Source: Phycisphaerae bacterium | GTDB lineage: Bacteria > Planctomycetota > Phycisphaerae > UBA1845 | Assembly: GCA_963666835.2 (NCBI GenBank) | Contig: CAXXGO010000006.1 | Span: 416,001-480,000, forward strand | Direction of reading: 5' to 3' | DNA: 64,000 bases | Shown: positions 9,794 to 27,700 of the stretch, one piece after another | How positions within the stretch are numbered: the stretch's first letter is position 1 | How the letters are laid out: each line of letters starts with the position of its first letter | Notes under the pieces: generated by a model | Told to the model about the DNA's origin: nothing | Database searches by the model: none | Seen by the model: only the letters and a program-made list of their open reading frames with translations | Program-made: the position numbers and the translations under genes

Positions 9794-10605
9794 GTTGGGC
9801 ACGGCCGAGGCACGAGACCTGCCGCAATGCCGCACGTCGCGCGAGGACCACGTAGGGCACGGTCGAGGTACGAGACCTGCCATCAAGGCCGCACGTCGCG
9901 CGAGAACCACGTAGGGCACGGTCGAGGTACGAGACCTGCCATCGAAGCCGCAATCGACCGAGTTGCACGAATATGTGACACCCGCGTGGCTCGCGGGATT
10001 AGCCCGCCAGGGCGGCAGCTCTGCCTAGCCCGCGGCGTCAGCCGCGGGATCGCCTGCTCTTGAGCAGTGCAGAACCGGCGTTGCCACATGGTTGTCATCC
10101 CGCGTAGGGCACGGTCGAGGAACGAGACCTGCCATAGAAGCCGCACATTGCACGAAGATCTCGCGTTCGGGGCATGGACCGTTCCAGCTTGCCCGTGGAG
10201 TCATGCATCGCGTCAAGCTCCACGGATCAACAAGTTGCCCCAGGACACCCTGGTGGCACCCCTGTGGGGCACGGTTGAGGTACGAGAACTGCCACAGAAG
10301 CTGCACATTGCACGAAGGCCAACGGCAGGTCTCGTTCCTCGACCATGCCCTACACCCGCTATTCCCGCTGGACGTGGGTGAGCCGATGATCAGGTATCGA
10401 CCATTGCGGCAGGTCTCGTTCCTCGACCATGCCCTACACCCGCTATTCCCGCTGGACGTGGGGGAGCCGATGATCAGGTATCGACCATTGCGGCAGGTCT
10501 CGTTCCTCGACCATGCCCTACACCCACCATTCCCGCTGGACATGGGTGAGCCGATGATCGGGCGTCGACTACCGCGGCAGGTCTCGTGCCTCGACCGTGC
10601 CCTAC
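9794..10605. repeat. Cluster of 9 REP-like palindromes (class 1: GTAGGGCA(C)GGTCGAGG(T/A/C)ACGAGACCTGCC)
   Basis: Forward copies at about 9794, 9852, 9911, 10104 and 10264. Reverse copies at 10324, 10408, 10492 and 10576 (84-bp period, near-identical linkers). Confidence 0.9.
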
Positions 10606-10741: not shown

Positions 10742-12424
10742 GTGATCGGGGGCACTATCTTACGGGCCGGACGGCGTCGAATCCGGCACCGTCGCATACT
10801 CCGCCCGGTCGATCGGGAGGCAGCATTGCCAACGGCAGGAACATCCGAACCTCGGCACGTGCGCCCTTTGGTGTCGGATCTTTGGCACCAAGGGATCGGG
10901 GGCCTGATCGTGGCGATTCACGCAACGGTGTTTGTCGCCTCACTGGCCGGGCCGGGGCTGGTGCTGATCGGCACGTTCATCGATGACGGCCGATTCTCCC
11001 TGTCCGCTTGGGCCAATGTGTTCGCCGACTGGGGCCGATGGGGGACGTTGCTGAGCAATACCGCAATCGTCTCCGTCGTAGCCCTGGCAGTGCTGATGAC
11101 GGTCGGCGTCGCACTGGCCGCGTGTCTCTTCAAAACAGACGCCCGCGGTCGCTTCGTAGGTATCAGCCTGCTTCTTCTGGCCGCCGCGATCCCGCTGTAC
11201 GTGGTTGACGGGGCCGCAATCGCGATCTTCGGGGCCGATTCACTCCGCGGCTCGGCACCGGCGGTTGGGTTGATTCATGCTCTCGCACATTTGCCGCTCG
11301 TAGTCATCATTATCGGGATGGCCTTTCGATCAGTGCCCCCGGCCGCGGAGGAAAGCGCACTGGTCGACGGAGCCGGTCGCTGGGGGACTTTCCGGCACGT
11401 GACGCTACGGATGGGGTTCGGCGGGCTCGCGGCCGCGGCGATCATAGTCCTCCTTTGGGTCACAACAGACTACTCCGTGTCGGACACGCTGTTAGTCCGA
11501 ACGTTTGCCGAGGAAGTGTACACTCAATATGCCCTGGAGGGCCGCCCGCAGGAGCCGGCGTTGGTATGCCTGCCGCAGATGCTTCTCTTCGGCGTGGTGC
11601 TGTGGATGTTACGTCGGCACTACCTGACCGGAACCGATGCCCCGCCGCCTGTAACCGCGACGTTTCAGTTCAAGACTCGCCGATGGCGGCCTTTGCTGTC
11701 GTTTGTCGTCCTCGGCATTCCCTTGATCCTGGTGGGTACTCTTCTGTCTGCCTTGGTGAGTCCTCTGCGGGAATCGCCGGAGCCGTTGCACGTGGCCTCG
11801 TGGTTTGTCGAAGAGGTCGGCACGTCTTTGGTTACGGGCGGGCTGGCCGGGGTTATCTCGGCGGCCCTTGGAGTCGGTTTGGCGTGGTACATCGTGAGGC
11901 GCCCGCGATGGCGTCCGATCCTGGCGGCGTATGTGGTGGCGATGCTGGCAATCCCGGCACCTATTCTCGGGATCGGGATGATCCTGCTGTTCAACCGGCC
12001 GGGGATAATGGGCAATGTGTACGACTCCCCCGCGATCCTGACGGTGGCCTATGTCTTCCGGTTCCTGCCGCTGGCGGTCATATTCCTCATTCCAAGTGTG
12101 CGCGCCCTGCCTTGCGACTGCGAGCACGCCGCAAGGGTTGACGGGTGCTCCGAGCTGGGCGTCTGGCTCCGTATCGTCTGGCCGCAGTGCCTTCGGACGG
12201 TGTTTGTTACCGCGTTTGTGATATTGGTGCTGGCCGTGGGCGAGTTACCCTGTTCCCTACTGGTCACCCCGCCGGGGTCGGTTACCGTGGGCGCCCGGCT
12301 TTTCAGTCTCCTCCACTATGGCATGTATCCGGATGCCGCAATGTTGTGCCTGCTGTCAATTGCCGGTATTATCATTCCGTCGTGTATCCTGTTGCTGCTA
12401 TTGAAACCGCGGTTGACAGGGTGA
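10742..12424 (+). CDS. Fe(III)/thiamine-type ABC transporter permease (FbpB-like, two MI domains); start uncertain
   Basis: Two EAA loops (EESALVDGA, EHAARVDGC) and many TM segments. Confidence 0.85.
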   Translation: MIGGTILRAGRRRIRHRRILRPVDREAALPTAGTSEPRHVRPLVSDLWHQGIGGLIVAIHATVFVASLAGPGLVLIGTFIDDGRFSLSAWANVFADWGRWGTLLSNTAIVSVVALAVLMTVGVALAACLFKTDARGRFVGISLLLLAAAIPLYVVDGAAIAIFGADSLRGSAPAVGLIHALAHLPLVVIIIGMAFRSVPPAAEESALVDGAGRWGTFRHVTLRMGFGGLAAAAIIVLLWVTTDYSVSDTLLVRTFAEEVYTQYALEGRPQEPALVCLPQMLLFGVVLWMLRRHYLTGTDAPPPVTATFQFKTRRWRPLLSFVVLGIPLILVGTLLSALVSPLRESPEPLHVASWFVEEVGTSLVTGGLAGVISAALGVGLAWYIVRRPRWRPILAAYVVAMLAIPAPILGIGMILLFNRPGIMGNVYDSPAILTVAYVFRFLPLAVIFLIPSVRALPCDCEHAARVDGCSELGVWLRIVWPQCLRTVFVTAFVILVLAVGELPCSLLVTPPGSVTVGARLFSLLHYGMYPDAAMLCLLSIAGIIIPSCILLLLLKPRLTG

Positions 12425-12715
12425 TGCTTATACTGTTTCTATATGCGGAGAGGGTTGTTGTGTTTCATTCCTGGTCCAACCCCGTTGGAATTGCTCGATC
12501 CCGGGGTAGCCGCTTTGCGGCAGGATTGGGCTTAAGAACGAAACGCCCTCGGCGCATTCCAATGCAAGAGCGCCTCGGTGTTCTTGCGACATAGCAGCCC
12601 GTTGAGGAAGGGGACAGGCTCCGGGGAGATTCCCGCTCAAGATGTCACGATACGCGCTCGGCGTATCCCGATGCGGGAACGTATTGGCGTTCTAACCACA
12701 TAGGAGACCGGTCAG

Positions 12716-13756
12716 ATGAGAAAAAATCTCGTTGGTTCATTCGTTTGCCTGGTTCTGTTGTCGGCCTGCGCGGGATGTGAGAAGGGCGATAGCTCTCCCG
12801 AAGTGGCGACGCGGGAGGTTGTGGTCTATACGGCCTTGGATCGCGGGTTCTCCGAGCCGATTCTGGCGGATTTTACAGAGATGACGGGGATCGAGGTTCG
12901 GCCGCAATACGACACCGAATCTACCAAGACCGTCGGGCTGACCAATCGCATTCGGGCGGAGCGGGACAGGCCGCGGTGTGATGTGTTCTGGAATAACGAG
13001 ATCCTCAACACGTTGCAGCTCAAGTCCGAAGGGCTTTTGGAGCGGTGCAGCCCCTCGCAGGCTGCGAACTACGCCGAAGCCTGGAAGGATCCGGAGGGCT
13101 ATTGGTATGGTTTCGCTGCCCGGGCGCGGGTGATTATCGTCAATACGGATCTGGTGCCGGAAGGGCCTTTCCCTGCTTCCATTTACGACCTGGCCGACGC
13201 CCGCTGGAAGGGCCGGACCGGGATCGCCAAGCCCCTTTTCGGCACGACGGCGTCGCACGTGGCCTGTCTGTTTGCCGCGGTGGGCCCGGACAAGGCGACG
13301 GCGTATCTCGATTCGCTCAAGGCCAATGATATCCAGATTCACGGGGGGAACAAAGGATGCGCCACCGCAGTTGCGGCCGGCACCACCGCCTTCGCCCTGA
13401 CCGATACCGACGATGCCATAATCGAAGTCGAGTCCGGTAAGCCAGTGCGCATCGTGTACGCCGACTCGGACCCGGAGGGCTTGGGCACGCTGTTTCTCCC
13501 GAACACGTTGGCTATCGTCAAGGACGCTCCGCACCGCAAGGAAGCCGAACAACTCGTGGACTATCTGCTGTCGGCAGAGGTGGAGCAGCGGCTCGCGGCC
13601 GGTCGTTCGGCGCAGATTCCGCTCAACCGGAATTCGACACCGAACGAGCGGATCAAAGGCCCTGCCCAGCTCAAGGCCATGAAGGTAGATTTTGCGGCGG
13701 CCGCGGCCGCGTTCAACTCTGCGCGAGAAACGGTGGAGAAGGACTTTCTCGATTGA
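12716..13756 (+). CDS. ABC transporter extracellular solute-binding lipoprotein (FbpA/AfuA-like)
   Basis: Lipobox CAGC, VVVYTALD, DVFWNNE, ARARVIIVNT, GIAKPLFGTT and TDTDD; AGGAG RBS. Confidence 0.88.
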   Translation: MRKNLVGSFVCLVLLSACAGCEKGDSSPEVATREVVVYTALDRGFSEPILADFTEMTGIEVRPQYDTESTKTVGLTNRIRAERDRPRCDVFWNNEILNTLQLKSEGLLERCSPSQAANYAEAWKDPEGYWYGFAARARVIIVNTDLVPEGPFPASIYDLADARWKGRTGIAKPLFGTTASHVACLFAAVGPDKATAYLDSLKANDIQIHGGNKGCATAVAAGTTAFALTDTDDAIIEVESGKPVRIVYADSDPEGLGTLFLPNTLAIVKDAPHRKEAEQLVDYLLSAEVEQRLAAGRSAQIPLNRNSTPNERIKGPAQLKAMKVDFAAAAAAFNSARETVEKDFLD

Positions 13757-14441
13757 GGCACACTCACCCGGCAAGCTTCGGGCGAACGATCGTCGATCAG
13801 CGGGGCGACAGACAGTAAGGCGCTGGGGATGACCTCCCCGGCGGTTTCTTTTGCGCCGTGCGCGTTTGCCGATACCGCTTCCACATAGGTCGTTCAGGAC
13901 CCGACACTGCCGGAAAGACCCGCTGGTCCGCAGGCCAGGCGGGGTATACCCTTCGTTCCGATAGTACCCGCTTGACGGGTCGGCGCGGGCCGCTCGATTC
14001 TCTCGTTGCGCGCCGTTTGGTTCGGGACGGGCGATCGAGCCGGGGGTTCTCCCGCGCCGCCTCCTATCGTCTATCGGGCTTCTCTTTGCCAGCCGATATC
14101 CACTTGTCGAAGCGCGCGCTCACTGGGGGAACCGAATTATCGGGGTGCTTGCTTTGATGGGATGATCTCCGGTGCGAGTCCATCGAGGATTCGGGGCAAC
14201 GGACCTCGTATTCGTCGGTGTTGGCAAAGCGGTCGCTCGTGCGGCCGTTTACCGGTGCCGACGCGCAAGTGGAAGCCCGCGATGTCCAACGGCGATCGGC
14301 AGAATGCGGTCCTAGAGAGGACCGGTCGAGGTTGCTCGTTTCGTCAAAGCCGGAGAATAAAGCGACAGCCCAGGGTAAAACGAAGAGCGGCTCTTTCTAC
14401 CACGGGCGTCTTTCGGGGTTATGTTCTCGGCGGAACCAGGC

Positions 14442-16316
14442 ATGAAGATAGCACACAAGCTGATCTTAGGATCGACAGTCTTAGTGTCGCTGCTCTGGGT
14501 AGTCGGATGGTACTCAGTTTCCGTCGGCCGGCAGTCGCTGCAGACTGCCATCGAACAGGCTTCCAAACAGCTTGCCGTAGCAGGAATCAATGCGGTAGAC
14601 AGCGCCGTCTGCGCCCACATCGACAACTGGCGGGAGTACTGGGCGGGTTCCCTGGCTCAACGTTTTCTTCGGGAATCCAATCAGCGATTCGCAACACTGC
14701 CGGATGCTCGGCATGTTATCGAGCAGCAAGACCGCGATTGGCAAGCAGCGCCCGAGGGTCATGTCATTCCTTTCATGCAGGCTCTTCTGGATAACGAGCT
14801 ATCTGGGGAACTCAGAAGGAAACTGGCCGCCGGCCGGCGATATAAGGGCTATGACGTTTACAGAGAAGTACTCGTGACGAACGTCTACGGCGTCAACACA
14901 GCCCAGAGCGGTAAGACATCCGACTATCGCCAGGATGACGAAGAGTGGTGGCAACATGCCAAACGCGACGGGCTCCTTGTTGAAGATGTCGGATACGACA
15001 AGAGCGCCGGCGGTTACTCAATCGGCATTTGTATGCGGGTGGACGACCCCCACGGAGAAACGCTTGGGGTGGCCAAGGTTGTCCTCAACGTTGAGAGCAT
15101 CCTCGACAGCTTGCGTAGCGAAGCCGCTAAGTTCGAATCCCGGGAAGATGAGTCGTCACAATACACGTTGGCTCTGTTCACTTCCGACAAACGGTTGATC
15201 TACGACGGCGCGGGCTTCGGAGAGTTGGAGGATCGCTCGGACATCCTACATGTCCATCAGAACTCCGGCGAAGAGCGCGTGCGAGTCTATCGCAGACATG
15301 ATCCGAAGTTGGGCGGACTTCTCGGGGCTTGCGCGGTCTCCCGAGGCTACGACGCCTACTCGGGTTTGGGTTGGATTCTGGTGGTCGAGAGCGCCGCCGC
15401 CGAGATCCTCGCACCGGTCACGGCTCTGCGGCGTGATATCCTCCTTATCTCCGCCATGGTCACGATCGGCGGCTTGGCCCTTGGAATCGGCGTCTCGGTT
15501 TCGCTTTCTCGGCGAGTTGCCAAGTTGAGGGATGCGGCGATCGAGATCGGCAAAGGAAACCTACAGGCCGGCGCCGAGGATCATTCAAACGACGAGCTGG
15601 GCAAGCTATCGCAATGTCTCAAAGACATGGCATCGGGACTGAGCAGGCGCTCTGAAAGTCTCCGCGAAAGTGAGGAGCGTCTGCAGACTATTCTGGATAC
15701 CATTCAGGCTGGCGTTGTTATTATCGATGCCGAAACCCACGTAATTGTTGATGTCAATGTCGCGGCACTGCGGATGATCGGGGCGCGCCGCGACGAGTTC
15801 GTGGGGCACGTCTGCCATAAGTTCCTTTGCCCTGCGGATGAAAGGGAATGTCCGATCGCCAAATCCGAAATTCCGCAAGACAACACGGAGCAGATCTTGT
15901 TCAGGCAGAACGGGCAGGCGTTTGCCGTGCTGAAGACGGTTACGCCTTTGAACCTTGCCGGCCGGGAACATCTGCTCGAGAGCTTCGTCGACATCAGTGA
16001 TCGAAAGAAGGCCGAGCAGGAGCTTCGTGAGCTCAATGCCATGATGCTCGAAGGGCTGGAACGCGAGAAGCGGGCCTCGGCGCGGGGGGCGGCGGCCGCA
16101 AAAGAGCTGGAACAACGCGTCAGAGAAGTCTCCGAGGCCAAGCAACGCCTGGAAGTTCTGGTGTCCAACACCACAGAGAGAGAACAACGCATGGTCGCGT
16201 TGAAACAGGAAGTCAACGATCTTCTGGATGAGCTTAAAAGAGCACCCCGATACGAAGCCCCCCGGAAAGTTCGGGAGGTAACTGCTCAAGCTCGATCAGC
16301 CGAGTCTGTCGGATGA
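14442..16316 (+). CDS. Membrane sensor protein: TM - Cache-like periplasmic domain - TM - HAMP - PAS - coiled coil, with no kinase or output domain
   Basis: TSDYRQDDEEWWQ...YDKSAG (Cache-like); IGKGNL...DELGKL (HAMP); ILDTIQAGVVIIDAETHVIVDVN...DISDRKKAE (PAS/PAC); C-terminal REQRMVALKQEVNDLL...PRY. No H-box or G-boxes. Confidence 0.85.
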   Translation: MKIAHKLILGSTVLVSLLWVVGWYSVSVGRQSLQTAIEQASKQLAVAGINAVDSAVCAHIDNWREYWAGSLAQRFLRESNQRFATLPDARHVIEQQDRDWQAAPEGHVIPFMQALLDNELSGELRRKLAAGRRYKGYDVYREVLVTNVYGVNTAQSGKTSDYRQDDEEWWQHAKRDGLLVEDVGYDKSAGGYSIGICMRVDDPHGETLGVAKVVLNVESILDSLRSEAAKFESREDESSQYTLALFTSDKRLIYDGAGFGELEDRSDILHVHQNSGEERVRVYRRHDPKLGGLLGACAVSRGYDAYSGLGWILVVESAAAEILAPVTALRRDILLISAMVTIGGLALGIGVSVSLSRRVAKLRDAAIEIGKGNLQAGAEDHSNDELGKLSQCLKDMASGLSRRSESLRESEERLQTILDTIQAGVVIIDAETHVIVDVNVAALRMIGARRDEFVGHVCHKFLCPADERECPIAKSEIPQDNTEQILFRQNGQAFAVLKTVTPLNLAGREHLLESFVDISDRKKAEQELRELNAMMLEGLEREKRASARGAAAAKELEQRVREVSEAKQRLEVLVSNTTEREQRMVALKQEVNDLLDELKRAPRYEAPRKVREVTAQARSAESVG

Positions 16317-17266
16317 CGGAGACGAATATGACCGCCACATTGTACTGGCTGCAGGGCGGAGGGTGCGGCGGAGACACCTGGTCGCTACTTAACGCCCAGT
16401 CACCTGACATCGTCGAGCTGTTGGCTATGCTGGATGTTGAAGTGCTGTGGCATCCATCCATGTCCAATGGCAGCGTCGCAGAGCATCACGATCTGCGGGA
16501 GCGAATGCTCTCGGGCGAACAGGCCTTGGACGTCCTGTGCATCGAGGGGGCGATAATCCGCGGCCCGAACGATACCGGTATGTTTGACGTGATCGACGGT
16601 CGGCCGAAGAAGGACCTGCTCGCGGATCTGGCGGCCCGGGCGCGCTTCGTGCTGGCCGTGGGGACCTGCGCGAGTTACGGCGGGATCGGCGCCGACGGCG
16701 AAGTGGAGGCCTGCGGAGCCCAGTTCCTCAAATGGGATAAAGGCGGATTTCTGGGTGAGGACTTCGAGTCTCGCGGTGGATTGCCGGTAATCAACCTACC
16801 CGGCTGTCCTTGCCACTGTGACGTTTTTGCCGGGGTCCTGACCGCCCTTCTGCAGGGTGAACCGCCCGCTCTGAACGAGCACAATGCCCCTTTGGCATGG
16901 TACGGCCTGCTGGTACACCAGGGCTGCACTCGAAACGAATACCATGAATACCGAGTTGAGGAAGCGGATTTCGGGGAGAAGGGGTGTTTGTTCTTTCACA
17001 TGGGGTGCCAGGGCCCCCTGGCGTTCGGCCCGTGCAATAAGGTGCTGTGGAACCGGCGAAGTTCAAAGACCCGAGTCGGAGTGCCGTGCTTCGGTTGCAC
17101 CCGCCCGGACTTCCCACAGAAATACGAGTTCTACCGTACGCGCAACATTGAGGGTATCCCGCGAGAGCTTCCCGATGGAGTGGATCGAGCGCATTACCTC
17201 GCATACAAGGGTATGGCCGCGGCGGCGGCCCCGGACAGGTTGAAGAAGAGAGCCACTCACATATAG
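16313..17266 (+). CDS. hupU: [NiFe]-hydrogenase small subunit, HupU/HoxB-like (sensory group 2), cytoplasmic
   Basis: WLQGGGCGGD, GTCASYGG, INLPGCPCH, VHQGCTRNEY, GCLFFHMGCQGP, PCN..LWN and PCFGC; no Tat signal; ATGA overlap with the upstream gene. Confidence 0.9.
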   Translation: MTETNMTATLYWLQGGGCGGDTWSLLNAQSPDIVELLAMLDVEVLWHPSMSNGSVAEHHDLRERMLSGEQALDVLCIEGAIIRGPNDTGMFDVIDGRPKKDLLADLAARARFVLAVGTCASYGGIGADGEVEACGAQFLKWDKGGFLGEDFESRGGLPVINLPGCPCHCDVFAGVLTALLQGEPPALNEHNAPLAWYGLLVHQGCTRNEYHEYRVEEADFGEKGCLFFHMGCQGPLAFGPCNKVLWNRRSSKTRVGVPCFGCTRPDFPQKYEFYRTRNIEGIPRELPDGVDRAHYLAYKGMAAAAAPDRLKKRATHI

Positions 17267-17285
17267 CGACCGGAGGATATGCGAC

Positions 17286-18857
17286 GTGCCCGAAACAACG
17301 ATGATCGATGCCCCGGAGACTCGCGTAGTGAAAAGGACTCTCAAGGTCCCTTTGAACCGAGTCGAGGGTGATCTCGAAATCCGCGTGGAATTGGATGATG
17401 ACTGCGTGTCCGACGCCTGGAGCACGGGAACCATGTTCCGCGGGTTCGAGAATATTCTCCGCGGGCGCGGGGCGCTCGACGGGCTGGTTATTACTCCCCG
17501 GGTATGCGGGATCTGCGGCACGGCGCACCTGACCGCCGCGGCCAAAGCCCTGGATGCCATCTCCCAGACACCTCCACCGGCTAACGCGGTCAGAATCCGC
17601 AATCTGGCACTCATGACGGAGCACATCCAGAGTGACGTGCGCCACGGGCTGTTGATGTTCATGGCCGATTTCGCCAACCCGGCCTACCGGGGCCATCCGC
17701 TCTATGAGGAAGCGCTGAGGCGTTTCGAGCCGTTCAAAGGGGAAGCAGTTATCGAAGCCATCAGGGAGACCAAGGAGCTGCTCGAGATCGTGGCCATCCT
17801 CGGCGGCCAGTGGCCGCATTCCTCGTATATGGTCCCCGGGGGTGTCGTCGCAACGCCGAGCCTGGCCGATCTGCTGCAGTGCCGCCATCTTCTGGCCAAA
17901 CACCAAGCCTGGTATGAACGCCGGATTCTCGGATGCCCAGTGGAACGATGGTTGGAAGTGGACAGCGCCGCCGATCTGGAAACCTGGCTCGAAGAAGACT
18001 CCCATCGTAACAGCGATTTGGGTTTCTTCATCCGCTTTGCTCGCCGAATCGGCCTGGAGAAGATCGGCCGAGGACCTCAGAACTTCATCAGCTACGGTTG
18101 CCTGGATATACCTGCCGACTCGCAAGTTCGCGGCCGGCGCAACGAGGTTACTGATCAACTGGTTCCCGCCGGGTTCGCCCGCGGCACGGACGTCGGTCCG
18201 TTCGAACAAGCGAGAATAACCGAGCATGTCTACCACTCGTGGTTTGAAGACTACGGCGGCGGGCGACATCCCTTTGAGGGCGAAACACGCCCCCGGCCGC
18301 CCGAAACAGATGATCACAAGTACTCCTGGGCGAAGGCGCCCCGATACGACGGCTTGCCCGCTGAAACAGGGCCGTTGGCGGAAATGATCATATCCGGGAA
18401 TCCACTGTTTACGGATCTTGTGGGGCGAGGCGGTGCCAACGTGTTCGTACGCGAGCTTGCTCGCCTGGTAAGGCCGGCCGAACTCATGCCGGCCATGAGG
18501 CAATGGCTGGCCGAAACAGATTGCGAAGGGACGTTCTACATTTCGGCGCCGCGAATCAGCGACGGGGAGGGCTTCGGATTGACCGAGGCGACGCGTGGAG
18601 CCCTTGGGCATTGGGTGAAAATCGCGGATCAGAAGATCCAACACTACCAGATTGTCACGCCAACCGCGTGGCACGCATCGCCCCGCGATTCCAACGGCGT
18701 GCGGGGGGCGTGGGAGGAAGCTCTGATCGGAACTACGGTTCAAGACCCTGCCAATCCGGTGGAACTGGGCCATGTCGTAAGGTCGTTCGACGCGTGCCTG
18801 GTGTGCACCGTCCATGCCGTCAAAGGGGGGCGAAGCGTGAGTCGCCGCACGCTGTGA
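17286..18857 (+). CDS. hupV: [NiFe]-hydrogenase large subunit, HupV-like (group 2c-like) with a cleavable C-terminal extension
   Basis: NRVEGD, L1 TPRVCGICGTAH, KYSWAKAPRY, RGALGHW, YQIVTPT and L2 SFDACLVCTVH followed by 13 extra residues. Confidence 0.92.
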   Translation: MPETTMIDAPETRVVKRTLKVPLNRVEGDLEIRVELDDDCVSDAWSTGTMFRGFENILRGRGALDGLVITPRVCGICGTAHLTAAAKALDAISQTPPPANAVRIRNLALMTEHIQSDVRHGLLMFMADFANPAYRGHPLYEEALRRFEPFKGEAVIEAIRETKELLEIVAILGGQWPHSSYMVPGGVVATPSLADLLQCRHLLAKHQAWYERRILGCPVERWLEVDSAADLETWLEEDSHRNSDLGFFIRFARRIGLEKIGRGPQNFISYGCLDIPADSQVRGRRNEVTDQLVPAGFARGTDVGPFEQARITEHVYHSWFEDYGGGRHPFEGETRPRPPETDDHKYSWAKAPRYDGLPAETGPLAEMIISGNPLFTDLVGRGGANVFVRELARLVRPAELMPAMRQWLAETDCEGTFYISAPRISDGEGFGLTEATRGALGHWVKIADQKIQHYQIVTPTAWHASPRDSNGVRGAWEEALIGTTVQDPANPVELGHVVRSFDACLVCTVHAVKGGRSVSRRTL

Positions 18858-18864
18858 GACGGTC

Positions 18865-19332
18865 ATGAAGCGAATCATCTGCATCGGCAATCGATACCGT
18901 TTTTGTGATGCGGCCGGCCCAATGGTGTACGACCTGCTGGCTCGCCGTGATCTTCTGCCGGAGGTGGAGCTGGTTGACGGGGGATTGGCCGGACTCGATC
19001 TGCTACGGTTCGTTCAGGGAGCCCGGCGGGTGGTTTTTGTGGACGCCGTGGTGGGTTTCGATGAGGCGGACGGCGTATTCGTCTTGAATGCCGACGAGGC
19101 GGCGGTATGTGCGGAGGCGGCCTTCGACCACGCGGCCGGGCTGGCCTATCTGCTGCGGGTCCTGCCTCAGGTTCTCGATGGGCAGCTTCCTGAGGTTTTG
19201 CTCGTTGGAATCCAGGGCGAGCCGAATGACAGTGCCGTCGAAACCGCCGCAGAGTTGAGCCTGAGCCTTGCCGTCGAAGGTGGGGCAAGGGGCTTTCTCG
19301 GGCACGTTGACCTCTCCGGAGTCCGAGGATGA
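18865..19332 (+). CDS. Hydrogenase maturation endopeptidase (HyaD/HybD family)
   Basis: IICIGN...DAAGP, VELVDGG, VVFVDAV and a His motif; directly follows the large subunit. Confidence 0.88.
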
Positions 19333-20912
19333 CAGCTACCAAGCGAGAACTCTCGGCCGAAGAACTGTATGAGGAAAACGCTCTGCTGAGGGAAGAGGTC
19401 CGGGTCGCGCGGCGCGCGTCGGATATCACTGCAGAACTGGTCGTCGAACAGTTTTCCCGAATCGAGGAGATTCTCCAGCGACTTGAGGACAAGGCGCAGA
19501 AGGAACAAGAGCTTGGCCACGAGCTTGCGAAGAAGCTCAGTGAGGCCGAGATCCGCGAGGCCACTCTGGCTAAGGAAAGGCAGCACCTTGAGGACCTGCA
19601 AATCGCCGCTATTAACATGATGGAGGATATCGCGGCCGCCCGAGTGGTTGCCGAAGCCTCCACACGATCCAAGAGCGAGTTCCTGGCCAACATGAGCCAC
19701 GAGATTCGCACCCCGATGACGGCCATCCTCGGGTTCACGGAGACTATGCTGGATCCCCAGCAGCCCGATTCCGAGAGAATAAACGCGATTCACACCATCC
19801 GCCGCAACGGCGAACATCTGCTCCAGATTATCAACGATATCCTCGATATCTCCAAAATCGAAGCGGGCAAGCTCGACGTCGAGCGAATCCGCTGCTCGCC
19901 GGTCGACGTGGTGGCCGATGTCATGTCGCTCATGCAGGTTCGCGCCGACGCCAAGAACCTGCCCTTCAATATCGAGTACATTGGCGTGGTGCCCGAGACT
20001 ATTGATAGCGATCCCACCCGCCTCAAACAGATTCTCATGAACCTGATCGGCAATGCCATCAAGTTCACCGAGACCGGCGGGGTCAGGCTCGTGACTCGTT
20101 TCGTGGATGATCCGGCCGAACCCAAGATGCAATTCGACGTGCTCGATACGGGACTCGGCATGACCGAAGAGCAGATGGGCAGGTTGTTCCAGGCGTTCAC
20201 GCAAGCCGACACCTCGACCACCCGCCGGTTCGGCGGGACCGGCTTGGGGTTGATGATCAGTAAACGGTTAGCCGAGATCCTCGGCGGCACCATCACGGTT
20301 GAAAGCACTCCCGGTAAGGGCAGTATGTTTCGGGTGACCATCGCCACCGGGCCGCGCGACGGCGTGAAGATGCTACACGACCCGACCGCGGCCACTATTA
20401 CCCATCCGGAATCGTCGGAGGCGCCGAAACCGCAAGTCGTCAATCTCGACTGCGGCGTTCTGCTTGCCGAAGACAACGCCACCAACCGAGCCCTCGTGAA
20501 TGGGATCCTGAAAAGAACCGGGGCAACGGTAACGGCAGTCGAGAACGGAAAGCTGGCCACCGAAGCGGCACTGGCCGCATGGTGCAGGGGTGATCCGTTC
20601 GACGTAATACTGATGGACATGCAAATGCCGGTGATGGACGGCTACGAGGCGACGAGCATCCTCCGCCAGAGGGGCTACCGCGGGCCGATCATCGCTCTGA
20701 CCGCTCACGCGATGGCCGGTGACCGTGAGAAGTGCCTCAAGGCTGGATGTGATGACTATGCCACCAAACCCATCGATCGAGCTGCGCTGCTCGAAACCAT
20801 CCAAAAGCACTTGGCGAGACCGCGCCAGGAACGCCCCGGTCCCGAATCCGCGACGGAATCGCAGAACCCTCCCGCCCTCGCCGCGACCGGGATGGGTGGC
20901 CCATCGCTTTAG
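19329..20912 (+). CDS. Soluble hybrid histidine kinase (coiled coil - HisKA - HATPase - receiver)
   Basis: [39 protein letters not shown] and a receiver (LLAEDN...[12 protein letters not shown]...KP); no TM or PAS domain; ATGA overlap with the protease. Confidence 0.95.
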
Positions 20913-22796
20913 CATGATCGCCCCATTGCTTCAGGTTTTGACGGGTGGCCCACCTCTTCAGAGGTGGGGGACTCGATGATCCACGTACAAGATCGCGCGG
21001 ACGCATTGCGTACGAGAGATGACAACGTCCGGACACTACACGGGTCAACAAGTTGCCGCATGACACCCCGGTGTCACCATTTGTAGGGCAGGTCGAGGTA
21101 CGAGACCTGCCGCAACGGCACGCCTCGTGCAAGGATGGGTGGCCCATCTCTTCAGAGGTGGGGAAACCGATGATCCACGTACAAGATCGCGCGGACGCAT
21201 TGCGTACGAGAGATGCCAACGTCCGGACACTCCACGGGCCAACAAGTTGCCGCATGACACCCCAGTGGCACCAGTTGTAGGGCAGGTCGAGGTACGAGAC
21301 CTGCCGCAACGGCACGCCTCGTGCAAGGATGGGTGGCCCATCGCTTTAGCGGTGGGGGAGTCGGACCGCTATAAGAGGGCGCGCGAACTCCGCGGCAGGT
21401 CTCGTGCCTCGACCGTGCCCTACCCATGCCGACCGTGTCGTGCGACATGCTGCACGTACGATGCCCGCATTGCGCGAAGCGGAGTAGAGTCAGCCGATGG
21501 GTGGCCCATCTCTTCAGAGGTGGGGAAACCGATGATCCACGCACAAGATCGCGCCGGCATATCGCATACGAGAGACGCCAACGTCCGGACACTTCACGGG
21601 CCAACAAGTCGCCCCATGACACCCATCCGGTACTACTTGTAGGGCAGGTCGAGGTACGAGACCTGCCGCAACGGCACGCCTCGTGCAAGGATGGGTGGCC
21701 CATCGCTTTAGCGGTGGGGGAGTCGGACCGCTATAAGAGGGCGCGCGAACTCCGCGGCAGGTCTCGTGCCTCGACCGTGCCCTACCCATGCCGACCGTGT
21801 CGTGCGACATGCTGCACGTACGATGCCCGCATTGCGCGAAGCGGAGTAGAGTCAGCCGATGGGTGGCCCATCTCTTCAGAGGTGGGGAAACCGATGATCC
21901 ACGCACAAGATCGCGCCGGCATATCGCATACGAGAGACGCCAACGTCCGGACACTTCACGGGTCAACAAGTTGCCGCATGACACCCCAGTGGCACCAGTT
22001 GTAGGGCAGGTCGAGGTACGAGACCTGCCGCAACGGCACGCCTCGTGCAAGGATGGGTGGCCCATCGCTTTAGCGGTGGGGGAGTCGGACCGCTATAAGA
22101 GGGCGCGCGAACTCCGCGGCAGGTCTCGTGCCTCGACCGTGCCCTACCCATGCCGACCGTGTCGTGCGACATGCTGCACGTACGATGCCCGCATTGCGCG
22201 AAGCGGAGTAGAGTCACCCGATGGGTGGCCCATCTCTTCAGAGGTGGGGAAACCGATGATCCACGTACAAGATCGCGCGGACGCATTGCGTACGAGAGAT
22301 GCCAACGTCCGGACACTACACGGGTCAACAAGTTGCCGCATGACACCCCGGTGTCACCATTTGTAGGGCAGGTCGAGGTACGAGACCTGCCGCAACGGCA
22401 CGCCTCGTGCAAGGATGGGTGGCCCATCGCTTTAGCGGTGGGGGAGTCGGACCGCTATAAGAGGGCGCGCGAACTCCGCGGCAGGTCTCGTGCCTCGACC
22501 GTGCCCTACCCATGCCGACCGTGTCGTGCGACATGCTGCACGTACGATGCCTGCGTTGCGCGAAGCGGAGTAGAATCACCCGATGGGTGGCCCATCTCTT
22601 CAGAGGTGGGGAAACCGATGATCCACGTACAAGATCGCGCGGACGCATTGCGTACGAGAGATGCCAACGTCCGGACACTACACGGGTCAACAAGTTGCCG
22701 CATGACACCCCAGTGGCACCAGTTGTAGGGCAGGTCGAGGTACGAGACCTGCCGCAACGGTACGCCTCGTGCAAGGATGGGTGGCCCATCGCTTCA
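20891..22796. repeat. Composite tandem REP array (BIME-like): 194-bp A and 168-bp B modules, 362-bp period
   Basis: A heads at about 20940, 21134, 21496, 21858, 22220 and 22582. B heads at 21328, 21690, 22052, 22414 and 22776 (the last interrupted by the IS). Each module starts GATGGGTGGCCCATC. A carries a forward class-1 REP and B a reverse one. Confidence 0.95.
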
Positions 22797-24644
22797 GGGC
22801 CTGTCGATTTAATTGGCATGGTTCTTGATGGCAGGTGTTCGTGGCCGAGCGTCAGGAAGAGAGGCGTCGCAGGGAGGCAACGAGCATGAGCAGATGGAAC
22901 CGAGCCCCGCTGCCCAGAGACCAAATACTCCTGATTCCCGAGACGTTGGGAGACCGCATCCCCGAGAATCACTCGGTGCGGCTCTTGATGGAAATCCTCG
23001 ATGGACTGGATTGGGCAAGCTGGGAACAACATTACGTTCTGGTGGTGGGGCAGCCGCCGATTCACCCCAAGATCGTGGCCGGGGCGATTCTATACGGTCT
23101 GACCAACAAGATTCGATCGAGTCGGCGTCTGGAGTGGGCGTGTGGTAACGCTGTTGACTTCATGTGGCTGACGGAAGGACGGATCATCGACCATTCGACA
23201 TTCTGTGATTTCCGCACGAGGTTCAAACGAGAACTGAAGGATCTGTTCCGACAGATCGGCCGCGTGGCTATGCAAATGGGATTGATACGCCTGAATCAGG
23301 TGGCGTTGGACGGGACTCGGGTTAAAGCGAATAGCAGTCCACACGCGACGGCCACTGCCAAGACGCTTGAAGAACGATTACGTGTTCTGGACGAACAGAT
23401 CGATAAGTTGCTGGCCGAGGCGGATCAGATAGATCGTCGCGAGAAGGATCTGTTCGGCGACAGCGTTTCGGTCAACACCCTGCCGTCGGAGTTGGGCGAT
23501 CTGAAGAAGCGTCAGAAACAACTTCATAAGGCCTTGGAGGCTGCGAAGAAGATCGACGCCAAGCATAGCAAGTCCCAAAACACTTCGAAACGTAAGGCCA
23601 AGGTTCCGGTGGCCGATCCGGATTCGACGATCATGCCCAATAAAGAGGGCGGCTATGGTCCGAATTACAATCCGGTAGCCGCTGCGGATGATGAGTGCGG
23701 GATGATCGTAGATGGGGACGTGCTCAACGAGATTAACGAAGCGGAGGCCGTAATCCCCACGGCCGAGCGTATTGAATCCGCTTTTGGTCAGAAACCCGAG
23801 CAGTTGGTGGCAGATTCGACGTTCGGCACAGGTGGCAACCTCTCGGCGTTGGTGGATCGCGGGATTAAACCTTTGATGCCTACGGGGACTTCGCGGTTGC
23901 CGGATGACAATCCGGCGGAACGTTCGGACCCGAGTACCCCGGTGCCGGAGGCGGACTGGGCTAGGCTTCCTCGTCGTCGTCAGACGGGAAAGCTGGACCG
24001 CGCCGCCTTCGTTTATCAGCGGGAAGAAGACTGCTATTACTGCCCACAGGGTCGCCGGCTGACGTTTGATCAAGTCAAGACGAAGGGTCGTGAGAACGGC
24101 GCCGATTCGGAATACCGGGTCTATCGGTGTTTGTCATGTGAGGGTTGCAGGCTGGCGGAAGATTGTCTATCCGGCAAGTGCAAGCGGCGAACGGTTTCAC
24201 ATGATCAACATGAACCGCTTCGCCAGAAGGTTGCGGCGCGGCTGAAGACGGCATCCGGTAAGAAGGACTACGCACGGCGGGCGCATCTGGCGGAGACTCC
24301 CAACGCAGTCATCAAGCATGCAATGGGGCTTCGGCAGTTTCTGCTACGTGGATTGGACAAGGTCCGAACCGAGTGGTTATGGGCATGCACGGCCTTCAAC
24401 ATAAAGAAACTGATAGCGATAGTGGGAGCTCTGCGCGCCGACGGTCGGGTCAAAGCCATTTAAGAGGCCTAAAAGGGCTTGCGCGCAGACAAAACCGTTC
24501 TACTAGGGAAGATAGGGGGTCTGATCTGCCAGGGACACCCACGATGACACGGATTGGATGAGGAGAACGTAGCCGTGCAACAGCGCGAGCCGCACGGAGA
24601 TCGCTCACCCATACTCCGTCTGCTGCGACTAAACCGACAGGCCC
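22797..24644 (+). mobile_element. IS1182-family insertion sequence (1848 bp)
   Basis: Terminal inverted repeats GGGCCTGTCGATTTAAT / ACTAAACCGACAGGCCC, flanked by a TTCA direct repeat (22793-22796 and 24645-24648); single transposase ORF. Confidence 0.9.
22886..24463 (+). CDS. IS1182-family DDE transposase
   Basis: PENHSVR...GQPPIHP...SSRRLE...DHSTFCDFR (DUF772-like), ALDGTRVKAN, DPDSTIM...YN, ADSTF, YYCPQG and RR...E...IK..MGLRQF.LRG; GGAGG RBS. Confidence 0.9.
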   Translation: MSRWNRAPLPRDQILLIPETLGDRIPENHSVRLLMEILDGLDWASWEQHYVLVVGQPPIHPKIVAGAILYGLTNKIRSSRRLEWACGNAVDFMWLTEGRIIDHSTFCDFRTRFKRELKDLFRQIGRVAMQMGLIRLNQVALDGTRVKANSSPHATATAKTLEERLRVLDEQIDKLLAEADQIDRREKDLFGDSVSVNTLPSELGDLKKRQKQLHKALEAAKKIDAKHSKSQNTSKRKAKVPVADPDSTIMPNKEGGYGPNYNPVAAADDECGMIVDGDVLNEINEAEAVIPTAERIESAFGQKPEQLVADSTFGTGGNLSALVDRGIKPLMPTGTSRLPDDNPAERSDPSTPVPEADWARLPRRRQTGKLDRAAFVYQREEDCYYCPQGRRLTFDQVKTKGRENGADSEYRVYRCLSCEGCRLAEDCLSGKCKRRTVSHDQHEPLRQKVAARLKTASGKKDYARRAHLAETPNAVIKHAMGLRQFLLRGLDKVRTEWLWACTAFNIKKLIAIVGALRADGRVKAI

Positions 24645-24769: not shown

Positions 24770-27700
24770 TCATGGGCGACCGTGTTTATTGACGGCATTC
24801 ATCTGCTGGAGGATCAGCACGTATTCGCGATGCGATATCGAGGGCTCAACCAGCATTTCCTCCGCGACGTACAACGTCTCTAGCACGGTTGCCCCGTCAG
24901 GCAGAACCTGTTGCAGGTCCAGCGTACCGGCCGCGACGTTCAGCCAGGCGACAAACACGCGTTGCGCCAATAATCCACGCATATTCGCCGAGCTCGATGT
25001 TCGGCCCGTGCGATCCCGGGCTCTCCCTCTTTTGGTCTCGCTCACGCCGGCCTGATCCGGCTCTCCGAGCTGCAGTATGGCCGTCGCTTCGGCGATGCTC
25101 CCGGCCGCGCATTGCTCGGAGAAATAGGAGCTGGCGAAGTTCACGTAGTCGAGCAGACCCAGAAGCGTCGGATCGTCCTCGCCGGGGTTGATAACGCTGT
25201 GCTTGCCGTTCCCGGCGAACTGGTGACGCCACTGGCCCAAGGTCAGCGGCCGCGTTGTATCGCCCGACACCAGCTTGGCGCGGTCTGCGCCCACCGCGCC
25301 CCCATCATCGTCGGCGACGCCGACACCCAGAACATATACCCCGGGGATTGAAAACGTCATCACGGCCGTGTCATCTGCGGCGAACGGGAACACGCCCGGC
25401 CCGCTGGGGTATGGATCGGGCCCGTGTCCGTCGTTGAAGTGCATGCTCGCGCCGGACTCGACCGGATCCCCAGTGCGTTTATTCGTCACCGTCCAGGCGA
25501 AGCCGAGGTCATCGGATCCGGGATCCGACGCCGAGAACTGGTGGGCTTGCCCGATGCCGACCCGGCCCATAAAGGCCATGGCATCGCGGAAGTTGATAGC
25601 GCCGTCCTCCTCCAGACCGAGCGACGGAACTACATTGACGACCTTGACCTTGAACGTGCCCGCGGCGCTTGCGCCGTCGTCATCGGTGACGGTGACGGTC
25701 ACGGTGAAGTCGCCGTTGTCGCCGTATTCGTGGCCGCCGTGGACTTCACCGCCGCCCTCGGGATATTGCGTGACCATTCCGTTCTCGATCGGCGAGCCGT
25801 CGCCCCAGTCGATCCTCGCGTTGTGCGTGTCGGACACCCCCGCATCGCCAAAGACCACCGGCGCCAACGCAACCAGTCCCCCCTCCTTGACGGTTTGATT
25901 CGTCCCCATCGACTCGATGGTCGGGGCGACGTTGAAAACCTCGGCGCTGGTGGTTGCCTCCGCAACCCCGCCTTCGCTGTCGGTGATAACGAGATCGACG
26001 ATTACCGTCCCGGGGCCGTCGGCGCCGGACGCGTCAAGGGTAGCCGTCCGCGTCGCCGCGTTGTGGAGCACAAACGGATTCGGCGGATCCGCAGACACGA
26101 TGCTCCACGAGTATTCCTCGATAGCCGAGCTCGTGAACTCCCCAACAAACTTCATCGATCTGGGAAAGTCACCTGCGGAGGCTGTGCCGGAGCCCGGGAC
26201 GCCTATTGATATGGAGTGAAGATCACCCCACTCCCGAACAGTACCGTTTCCCGCAAGAGTAAGATGCGCGCCTTCGTAATCCGCCTTCGCGAAAAGGACG
26301 ACGTCCACACCCGGCGGCGCGTACCACCGCACCGATGACGCCCGGTTGTTGAACCCCTTGAGGCTCTCCATCAGTTCATCAACATAATCATCCAGCAGAT
26401 TGACATACTCGGACAGTCGCGTAATCGCCTCGCGCAGATCGGCCAGAAACTCCGGGAAGTTCTCCGCAAACTCCGGGAGGTTGTTGATGTCGAAGCCGCT
26501 GTAGTGACTCGGATCCAAAACGTCGAGCAGAGGCGGGAGCGGGGGCGGCGGTCCCAGCGCGTCCGCGAAACGACCGCACTCGTTAATGGATGACACCAGG
26601 ATCCCGATCTTGTAGGTCAGCACGCCGAGCTTACCAAAGAAACTCCAAGCCGTTGCGTTGAAGTCCGGTATGGCCCCAACGACGCCGCGAATCCCCGGCA
26701 CGGGGGGGACGGCATAACACACGTTGTTGACCCAGACCCCGCGCACCGCACCTATAGGGTCTACATAGCATATGTTCTTCCAATGGCCGCGCTCGCCGCC
26801 GAAGGCGGGAATCAGCGTGCAGTTCTTGGATTCGTTCGGCAATGCCGGACGGCAAGGGCAACCGAATGAGCAGTCCTTATGCCCCTTGACCGCCGGAGTG
26901 GGAGGCCGCACCCAACAGTTGCTGCCGATCGGAATTCCCGGAACGAGCCCGGCAGAGTCAATGAAACACTGCCGCAGGACCGTACCGCGCTCGCCATCAT
27001 AGGGGAGTTTCGACCAGCAGATACCGTCACGCCACCAACCTATGCAGGCATAGTCAATGAAATCCTCCGCGGTGAGGTTCCGGCTGGCCTCGTCGACCTC
27101 CTTGCCGGCAGCAGTTACATCCGCCACGGCCGTCTCGTCGACGCAGACATCGATCCATAGCTGCCCGTCGAGTTCCGCAAAGTCGTCGTAGTCGTCCTTG
27201 ATTCGGTCGACATAGTCAAACATCACGCTTTGGCCTTCGAAGTTTGCGTGCTCGAACACTTGCGCCCACGGGGCTGCGGCAGCCGGAGTGCCTCTCGCGC
27301 CGTCGAGCATAATAGAGCGGCCTTCTTGGACTCGATAGGGGCCGCCCATCTCGAGCGTCGGATCGTATGTGGGACTATCGTCGCGCACCACGTGGATATG
27401 CCGCAGCTCCGCCATCCGAACGGTGGGGTAACCGCCCAGACCCTCGGGACCATCGCTGTAATGAGATACGGCATACACCAACAACTCGCCGGACGGGGTG
27501 ATGTGCGTGGCAGCCCCGGCCAGCAGGTCTGCGTTGGTGTTTTCCGTCTCAGCGCAGGTGCCGCACCAGGGATCGAGCGGATAGTAGAGCGGAGGTATGG
27601 AGCTATCGTTGATGAAGCTGACCGTGCGAGGGGCCTCGAGCTGGGTCACGGTGATCTGATTACCGTCCTCGAATCCCTCGATCTCGTACAGCACCAGGAA

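Follow-up and report, generated by a model that had tools for sequence, protein, structure and literature searches.

Gene layout of the locus

Within a 64,000-nucleotide window (C6:416001-480000) of the Phycisphaerae bacterium genome G000 (6.0 Mb, 61% GC), five plus-strand genes encode, in order, a membrane receptor, the small and large subunits of a [NiFe]-hydrogenase, a maturation endopeptidase and a cytoplasmic hybrid histidine kinase (Table 1). The feature is real and conserved. A sequence-only reading of the window had taken these genes for an H2-sensing operon in which a sensory hydrogenase lies between the two halves of a split sensor kinase. Its description of five co-directional genes, overlapping by ATGA at 16313-16316 and 19329-19332 and otherwise spaced by 19 and 7 bp, was reproduced in full by a check of the open reading frames (ORFs). 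The link between hydrogenase and kinase belongs to a predicted class. The new and surprising part is a pair of short conserved elements, a helix at the end of the receptor and an insert in the kinase, which we call the plug and the socket.

The terminator-like hairpin upstream closes an ABC solute-binding gene, which suggests that the five genes begin a transcript of their own; a scan returned 7 sites of this consensus where 6.3 were expected, so the hairpin is a consensus match only. A promoter scan of the locus gave no signal above chance level. The frame of the receptor gene has its first ATG at 14421, upstream of the start at 14442, and the small subunit has a second ATG at 16328, after GGAGA, that agrees with the start in most relatives. 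An assembly error at the break between receptor and small subunit is unlikely, because a 615-base contig of run X4 (depth 2) crosses the receptor stop and the ATGA overlap with zero differing letters; contigs of runs X1 and X3 cover the kinase end only.

Table 1. Features of the five-gene locus and its upstream boundary, in window positions.
Feature	Position	Strand	Remarks
Intrinsic-terminator-like hairpin (element 13821..13851)	13821-13843	+	Consensus match only; ends upstream ABC solute-binding gene
Membrane receptor without output: transmembrane segment, dCache-like periplasmic domain, transmembrane segment, HAMP, PAS, helix, plug	14442..16316	+	
Plug helix, RExRM-x-x-LKxEVN-x-LL...Y, receptor amino acids (aa) ~552-611	16095..16274	+	
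[NiFe]-hydrogenase small subunit, no Tat signal	16313..17266	+	
[NiFe] group 2c large subunit (assignment almost certain)	17286..18857	+	L1 and L2 motifs, 13-residue cleavable extension
Hydrogenase maturation endopeptidase	18865..19332	+	TIGR00072 above cut-off
Cytoplasmic hybrid histidine kinase: N-helix, coiled coil with socket, HisKA, HATPase, REC	19329..20912	+	
2c-specific N-terminal helix of kinase, ENxxLRxEVRVARxAxxITAxLVVxQF	19353..19490	+	Candidate hydrogenase docking site
Socket insert, 21 residues = three heptads, AAINMMED	19572..19634	+	Missing from sister kinases without upstream receptor

Placement of the hydrogenase

Pfam and NCBIfam agreed with the predicted HupU-like small subunit without a twin-arginine (Tat) signal, large subunit and endopeptidase. 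The small subunit also lacks any hydrophobic segment, has a CxxD motif at the proximal cluster, is 41% identical to HoxB over 313 aa, and carries a C-terminal segment homologous to part of the HoxB tail. The large subunit has the L1 motif RVCGICGTAHL and the L2 motif SFDACLVCTVH and ends in CTVH plus 13 residues; its Ile76 and Met124 occupy the positions of HoxC Ile62 and Phe110. In the protease, Asp15, Asp60 and His89 stand at what we take to be the metal-ligand positions. The rest of the genome holds a Tat-type hydrogenase, a group-3-like large subunit, an [FeFe]-like protein, HypA/C/D/E motifs and Hpt-motif proteins.

In a quick tree of 49 large-subunit sequences, the window enzyme groups with 37 close relatives and Ideonella dechloratans (L026), with a Shimodaira-Hasegawa-like approximate likelihood ratio (SH-aLRT) support of 99. 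The Ideonella branch is long, and this enzyme is the single HydDB 2c anchor, its first 45 residues being identical to the HydDB 2c entry WP_022980127.1. Group 2a (four sequences, which we take to be 2a from their similarity to Huc) and group 2b (three sequences) form separate clades. The tree thus bears out the 2c-like assignment of the sequence-only reading, which had named a group 1 or 2a placement as the counter-case, and the hydrogenase is almost certainly a member of the 2c clade. Its L2 motif conforms to the group 2c consensus SFDxCLVCTVH, as quoted from Greening et al. (PMC4853749), but a mycobacterial 2a reference fits it too, so this motif alone does not discriminate 2c. Group 2c has been an H2 sensor by prediction since 2016. 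The I. dechloratans 2c operon consists of small subunit, large subunit, protease and a diguanylate cyclase/phosphodiesterase.

Many 2c loci, such as those of the L003, L005, L075, L076 and L080/L107 type, have no operonic protease match; the L003 large subunit still has its extension, so a protease encoded elsewhere must serve these loci. At L080, L081, L098 and L016 another hydrogenase, group-1-like and possibly a target of regulation, is encoded a few kb away from the 2c operon.

The kinase and its N-terminal helix

The kinase consists of HisKA (His124), HATPase and REC (Asp430) domains, with neither Hpt nor PAS (Pfam/NCBIfam). It had been described as a hybrid kinase with no sensor domain. 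This holds to the extent that Pfam finds none, but the first 110 residues form two conserved, unannotated helical modules that are candidate inputs. Among 25 2c loci from GTDB, for which Pfam domains were taken from 53 of the 266 ORFs, a hybrid kinase stands behind the hydrogenase or its protease in 22; two others are truncated and in L007 the kinase lies upstream instead. The neighbourhood survey suggested at the outset therefore finds the kinase conserved directly behind the hydrogenase, and the order hydrogenase-(protease)-hybrid kinase, first thought unusual, is the ordinary 2c layout. The diguanylate cyclase expected beside 2c enzymes is indeed common, but it usually lies one gene beyond the kinase, as REC-GGDEF (L006, L010, L011, L012, L020, L021, L023 and L067).

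All 22 kinases open with one 45-residue helix (the N-helix), followed by a PAS domain, a linker or nothing before DHp; in L020 and L023 the helix is the sole element in front of DHp. It is present in 86 of 106 2c-like loci (the 25 GTDB loci, one in genome G269 and 80 metagenome loci). In fourteen of the 20 loci without a match the sequence runs on for no more than 116 bases past the hydrogenase or protease, and in one for 581; the other misses are divergent copies (L137, L143), a borderline case (L138) and two loci with none (L007, L140). Across the host's class, 2 of 391 genomes have the N-helix and 2 of 401 have the 2c large subunit, and they are the same two (G000 and G269). The 2c-linked cyclase of Ideonella begins with a divergent N-helix, scoring 22.3 against maxima of 16.4 in 200 shuffles and 14.9 in 33 control linkers. 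By profile comparison, the HoxJ N-terminus has no N-helix match. The helix has no name in Pfam or the PDB, and in the ESM Atlas it matches only unnamed hypothetical clusters. A relationship to HucM had no support from the PDB or from hidden Markov models.

Because the helix occurs only beside 2c enzymes, it is likely to be a docking site for the hydrogenase, which, by analogy with HoxB, probably docks through the HoxB-tail-like segment of its small subunit. That the hydrogenase signals to this kinase through the N-helix we consider quite probable.

At L096 (3723-6801), two consecutive downstream proteins each open with a copy of the N-helix. In a divergent 2c lineage, a small protein (L137, 9021-9359; L143, 4311-4739) that by eye looks like a Rieske-like Cys/His protein separates the protease from the signalling gene with the helix.

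A receptor tail and a kinase insert that occur together

The receptor has hydrophobic segments at aa 3-22 and 331-356 and a weaker one at aa 311-329, with HAMP and PAS domains and no kinase domain (Pfam/NCBIfam). Its periplasmic part matches Pfam dCache_1 at E=8e-4, below the curated cut-off, and the model of this part resembles the dCache domains of Tlp3, PctA and DctB at E~3e-10; the earlier description as a membrane Cache/HAMP/PAS protein without a kinase thus stands. The input half is 35-40% identical to that of a complete Cache-HAMP-PAS histidine kinase in the same genome (C6:860116-863808). That region (C6:855218-863808) comprises the complete Cache-HAMP-multi-PAS kinase and then five consecutive receiver-domain genes.

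The last 60-70 residues of the receptor keep 55-65% identity in relatives with wholly different input domains (GAF-PAS, sCache2-PAS-GAF, MASE3-PAS or PAS only), and an output domain is listed in none of 19 receptor homologues. The sensor expected beside the hydrogenase is conserved in one subclade, where it stands in front and has no output, but not in the sister loci. Likewise, integration of a periplasmic ligand, as first proposed, narrows to this genome, since the relatives place other inputs ahead of the same tail. Elsewhere, genome G329 (C12; L044/L148) has a similar dCache-HAMP input (34% over 413 aa) ending in a plug, with no 2c hydrogenase match in the genome and no socket within about 6 kb.

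The plug and socket motifs each occur once in the 6.0-Mb genome, both inside the five-gene operon. Kinases of plug-tailed loci carry the motif AAxNMMED shortly before DHp. Among 57 2c loci with both sides available (6 duplicates are left out, as are 43 loci that either break off on one side or have no N-helix match), 9 have both plug and socket, 48 have neither, and none has the plug only or the socket only; a tail fragment at the contig start makes L001 a tenth locus with both. The closest sister kinases are shorter by exactly 21 residues, and the DNA upstream of L076, L085, L088 and L093 has no tail gene. The spacing from the N-helix motif to His measures 91 in the 83 kinases that bear a socket and 70 in the 7 that do not, and all the measured spacings of 63, 70, 77, 91 and 119 (101 of 120 measured) are whole heptads apart. 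In plug, socket and N-helix alike, synonymous changes outnumber non-synonymous ones. From this co-occurrence the sensor and kinase are very probably partners, as had been proposed. Given that sister kinases lack the insert naturally, two short constructs would be enough to probe the plug/socket claim.

Plug and socket away from hydrogenases

On the hydrogenase tree, the plug-plus-socket state changes only one or two times, so the counts above may represent one event; this tells against the pairing, and independent evidence from beyond the 2c loci is needed. When 401 genomes were searched separately with each profile, the plug was found in 28, the socket in 22 and both in 17. Thirteen of the 21 socket matches outside the profile training set (8 training matches are left out) have a plug 1.0-2.5 kb upstream on their own strand. 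The eight unpaired matches include two at contig ends, four without a clear motif by eye and two that look genuine. Of 20 plug regions fetched, 17 have a socket after the plug, 4 of these being in the training set. Socket kinases without a hydrogenase usually have their own input before the socket (CHASE, MASE3, Tll0287 or PAS).

A profile search of 1.84 billion representatives gave 13,605 plug-bearing clusters at E<=0.001. In the best 150 of these, the plug lies at most 45 residues from the chain end in 148, and a kinase or GGDEF motif is found in none. A second, internal plug is present in 30 of the 150, and a socket-like motif follows it in 18; the motif is found in none of the other 120 proteins (background, 8 per 1.72 million residues), although many of these 120 are short fragments, which weakens the comparison. 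Fused chains often run plug-PocR-socket, and also plug-PocR-socket-kinase, and behind two further plugs (L200, L201) a socket and HisKA follow in cis. An AlphaFold monomer of a natural plug-PocR-socket fusion has a predicted local distance difference test (pLDDT) score of 89, with the plug helix at residues 2-48 and a long helix at 219-290; Foldseek returned nothing for this model at E<=0.001. A complex prediction for two copies each of kinase aa 45-185 and the plug scored 0.12 against a mark of 0.32, which, with no controls run, speaks neither for nor against contact.

Taken together, the orders across genes and within fused chains read as a grammar in which one or more inputs end in a plug, followed by another input, a socket and an output or further plug, on one chain or two. 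In the operon of the window, the hydrogenase and N-helix would fill the second input slot. Some output-less sensors (P0260-P0283) have two plugs and one socket and could chain head to tail.

The plug has no match in Pfam or the PDB, and its only matches in the ESM Atlas are unnamed hypothetical clusters. We considered whether it is a degenerate DHp helix, which hhalign did not support (probability 0.25 against DHp) and for which it has no conserved His; nor did hhalign support mutual homology of plug, socket and N-helix.

Proposed mechanism

We propose that, in line with established hydrogenase biology, the operonic protease would mature the hydrogenase together with Hyp proteins from elsewhere in the genome, and that the mature enzyme would bind the kinase N-helix and signal H2 via its redox state. 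Oxidation of H2 may then, by analogy with HoxBC-HoxJ, shift the kinase coiled coil and alter autophosphorylation. A receptor dimer would relay a periplasmic signal via HAMP and PAS to the plug, which, judging by co-occurrence, would pack on the socket, some 25 residues ahead of His124. The two signals would then converge just upstream of DHp and jointly set autophosphorylation. The phosphoryl group would pass from His124 to Asp430 and on to an Hpt protein and a regulator, presumably encoded elsewhere because the operon has neither. At L067 an Hpt and a REC-GGDEF gene are attached, so cyclic di-GMP may be one natural output.

We regard the whole picture, in which the 2c hydrogenase and the receptor feed one two-input kinase with H2 or redox state plus an external ligand, as evenly poised. 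As a genomic rule the plug/socket pair is well supported, and from this we infer physical contact; direct contact of plug and socket seems to us somewhat more probable than its absence. A similar modest preference goes to H2, rather than redox, as the signal. The estimates for clade, helix signalling, H2 signal and plug-socket contact are not mutually independent. The chances are about equal that the RExRM plug and AAxNMMED socket form a widespread, undescribed pair of docking helices that makes the 2c hydrogenase-kinase an H2-plus-ligand logic gate. On this reading, catalytically empty receptors, single or chained head to tail, would feed sideways into the coiled coil of a kinase having its own input. 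If true, the pair would account for thousands of "PAS domain S-box" proteins whose chain stops short of any output domain, and would offer a general way to assemble multi-input histidine kinases from separate chains, with use in synthetic sensing.

Several observations weigh against this picture. The evidence for coupling is genomic co-occurrence throughout; some of the class-level plug/socket pairs are close relatives of one another (family f6), and the genomes searched also supplied the plug profile. No plug lies near two sockets that look genuine (G274:C31, G209:C30), 12 of the 30 internal plugs have no socket match, and 1 of the 18 matches looks spurious (P0353). On the 3' side of the kinase lie a repeat array and a transposase, with no regulator or cyclase, so no output is visible. 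HypB and HypF were not found in the genome by simple motifs. The gas-channel pair is Ile/Met, against Ile/Phe in HoxC, and the Ile is common to 2a uptake enzymes. HydDB labels group 2c "diguanylate cyclase-linked (putative)", with its role undetermined in that entry (PMC5037454).

Alternative explanations

The hydrogenase-kinase sensor could stand while the receptor tail oligomerises the receptor or binds a third protein instead of the NMMED insert, plug and socket motifs being simply co-inherited. Such a reading would fit evidence made up of co-occurrence, as well as the 3 of 20 plug regions with no nearby socket (L148, L155, L156) and the 11 of 28 plug genomes without a socket at E<=0.001 (two of which, G146 and G340, do match by regular expression or local profile). 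We nevertheless think co-inheritance unlikely: the socket is an exact three-heptad insert found only with a tail gene, the plug-then-socket order stays constant across genes and fused chains despite varied intervening domains, and the invariant residues look mostly basic in the plug and acidic in the socket. The original idea that an ancestral Cache-HAMP-PAS histidine kinase was split by inserted hydrogenase genes, its halves then reassembling, is largely refuted and very improbable. A complete kinase with a similar Cache-HAMP-PAS half does exist in the genome, as do fused plug...socket-kinase proteins, but the complete paralogue has neither plug nor socket and is of a different kinase class, and the fused forms have another domain between plug and socket. 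Moreover, the window's kinase starts with a 2c-specific helix common to sensor-free 2c loci, sister kinases without a socket have no upstream sensor, the domains ahead of the plug vary by locus, and elsewhere the socket-bearing kinase has an input domain of its own.

The same wiring could also serve a hydrogenase that senses O2 or redox, its Fe-S chain reporting the cytoplasmic redox state. Even for HoxBC, the mechanism is presented as not yet settled, with a possible tie to Fe-S oxidation (PMC6978683), the ligand set at the proximal cluster is an unusual CxxD, and sulfate reducers and Gallionella/Sulfuricella are among the 2c hosts. A sensor of redox by Fe-S alone, though, would need none of the NiFe ligands, cleavable tail and protease that are retained here, and the host has other hydrogenases whose expression could be tuned to H2; redox or O2 sensing is therefore rather improbable in our estimate, slightly more so than co-inheritance. 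Slimmer still is the chance that the enzyme is a cytoplasmic uptake hydrogenase like group 2a Huc, with signalling genes that only regulate it or are co-regulated. Huc is the nearest solved structure (E~1e-129) and a cleavable tail with protease is found in 2a as well, yet the large subunit lies outside 2a in the tree, the operon has no HucM-like, cytochrome or other electron-acceptor gene, and the kinase is translationally coupled and bears a helix known only from 2c loci.

Comparison with known systems

The locus resembles the 2c enzymes of HydDB, such as those of Ideonella, Desulfobulbus and Magnetospirillum (PMC5037454), in its large-subunit clade, the motif SFDxCLVCTVH, a Tat-less small subunit and a protease. 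In the HydDB scheme, which goes chiefly by sequence, clade, L2 motif and cytosolic location (no Tat signal, no membrane anchor) all agree with 2c, but the cyclase or phosphodiesterase gene that HydDB associates with the operon is missing. Most 2c relatives have the same hybrid kinase followed by REC-GGDEF or REC-HD-GYP; since no cyclase lies in the operon, we regard the locus as a variant of the 2c clade and not as a diguanylate cyclase-linked system. The extra upstream receptor without output and the socket insert also set it apart from other 2c loci. The HydDB table and the rows examined with it name no kinase or docking helix for 2c (PMC5037454).

Like the 2b system HoxBC-HoxJ-HoxA of Cupriavidus necator (HupUV-HupT), the locus places a cytoplasmic NiFe enzyme beside a histidine kinase; the identity to HoxB extends to part of the C-terminal stretch by which HoxB binds HoxJ, and the Ile at the first gas-channel position is shared with HoxC. 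HoxJ contains a PAS domain. By contrast, the window's kinase is a hybrid without PAS and opens with a helix missing in HoxJ, and the operon has no HoxA-like regulator. The large subunit is in a separate clade from 2b (37-39% identity), has His after L1 where 2b has Gln (SVSQ), and keeps its 13-residue tail and adjacent protease, whereas HoxC is described as ending at CTVH (PMC8229454). Membership in 2b thus fails on tail, protease, clade and the lack of PAS in the kinase. The closest solved structure, 2a Huc of Mycobacterium smegmatis (PDB 7uus/7utd), is likewise cytoplasmic with tail and protease, but it belongs to a different clade (41-43% identity of the window enzyme to four 2a-type references), and the window enzyme has signalling neighbours and no HucM-like stalk gene.

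The S-helix (PMC1592074) is, like the plug, a conserved coiled coil between sensor and output. That source gives it a central ERT signature and a place that is nearly always internal to a single chain, with a domain on either side; the plug, which ends the chain in 148 of 150 proteins and co-occurs with a motif on another chain, is not an S-helix. Archaeal "HisKA, no HATPase" proteins (PMC5847659) are, like the receptor, PAS/GAF sensors with a helical end and no catalytic domain. According to the same source they keep the phospho-acceptor His in a HisKA-like domain, whereas the plug has neither a conserved His nor similarity to the DHp profile. The text of PMC13725321 on the PocR-GGDEF linker does not mention plug or socket motifs. 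Our literature search, with most subscription journals outside it, found no study of a tested 2c enzyme, its kinase or plug/socket. It likewise returned no prior description of a 2c-linked kinase, although the operon figure or supplements of Greening et al. 2016 may show a kinase or protease.

Neighbouring features

Directly behind the kinase, a tandem array at 20943-22794 (period 194 then 362 bp, 4.6 copies, 96% alike) ends at an insertion sequence (IS)-type DDE transposase (22835-24463), and related motifs recur in shorter arrays at 9797-9952 and 10323-10605. Upstream, an ABC permease and an Fe/thiamine-type solute-binding protein occupy 10742-13756, a neighbourhood not kept in relatives. 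On the minus strand, 24770-29266 encodes a 1498-aa protein, probably exported, with Cys-rich repeats and PKD domains and mostly without Pfam match. A reverse transcriptase (RVT_1, E 1.6e-40) at 60766-62271, possibly of a group II intron, adjoins a RecQ helicase gene.

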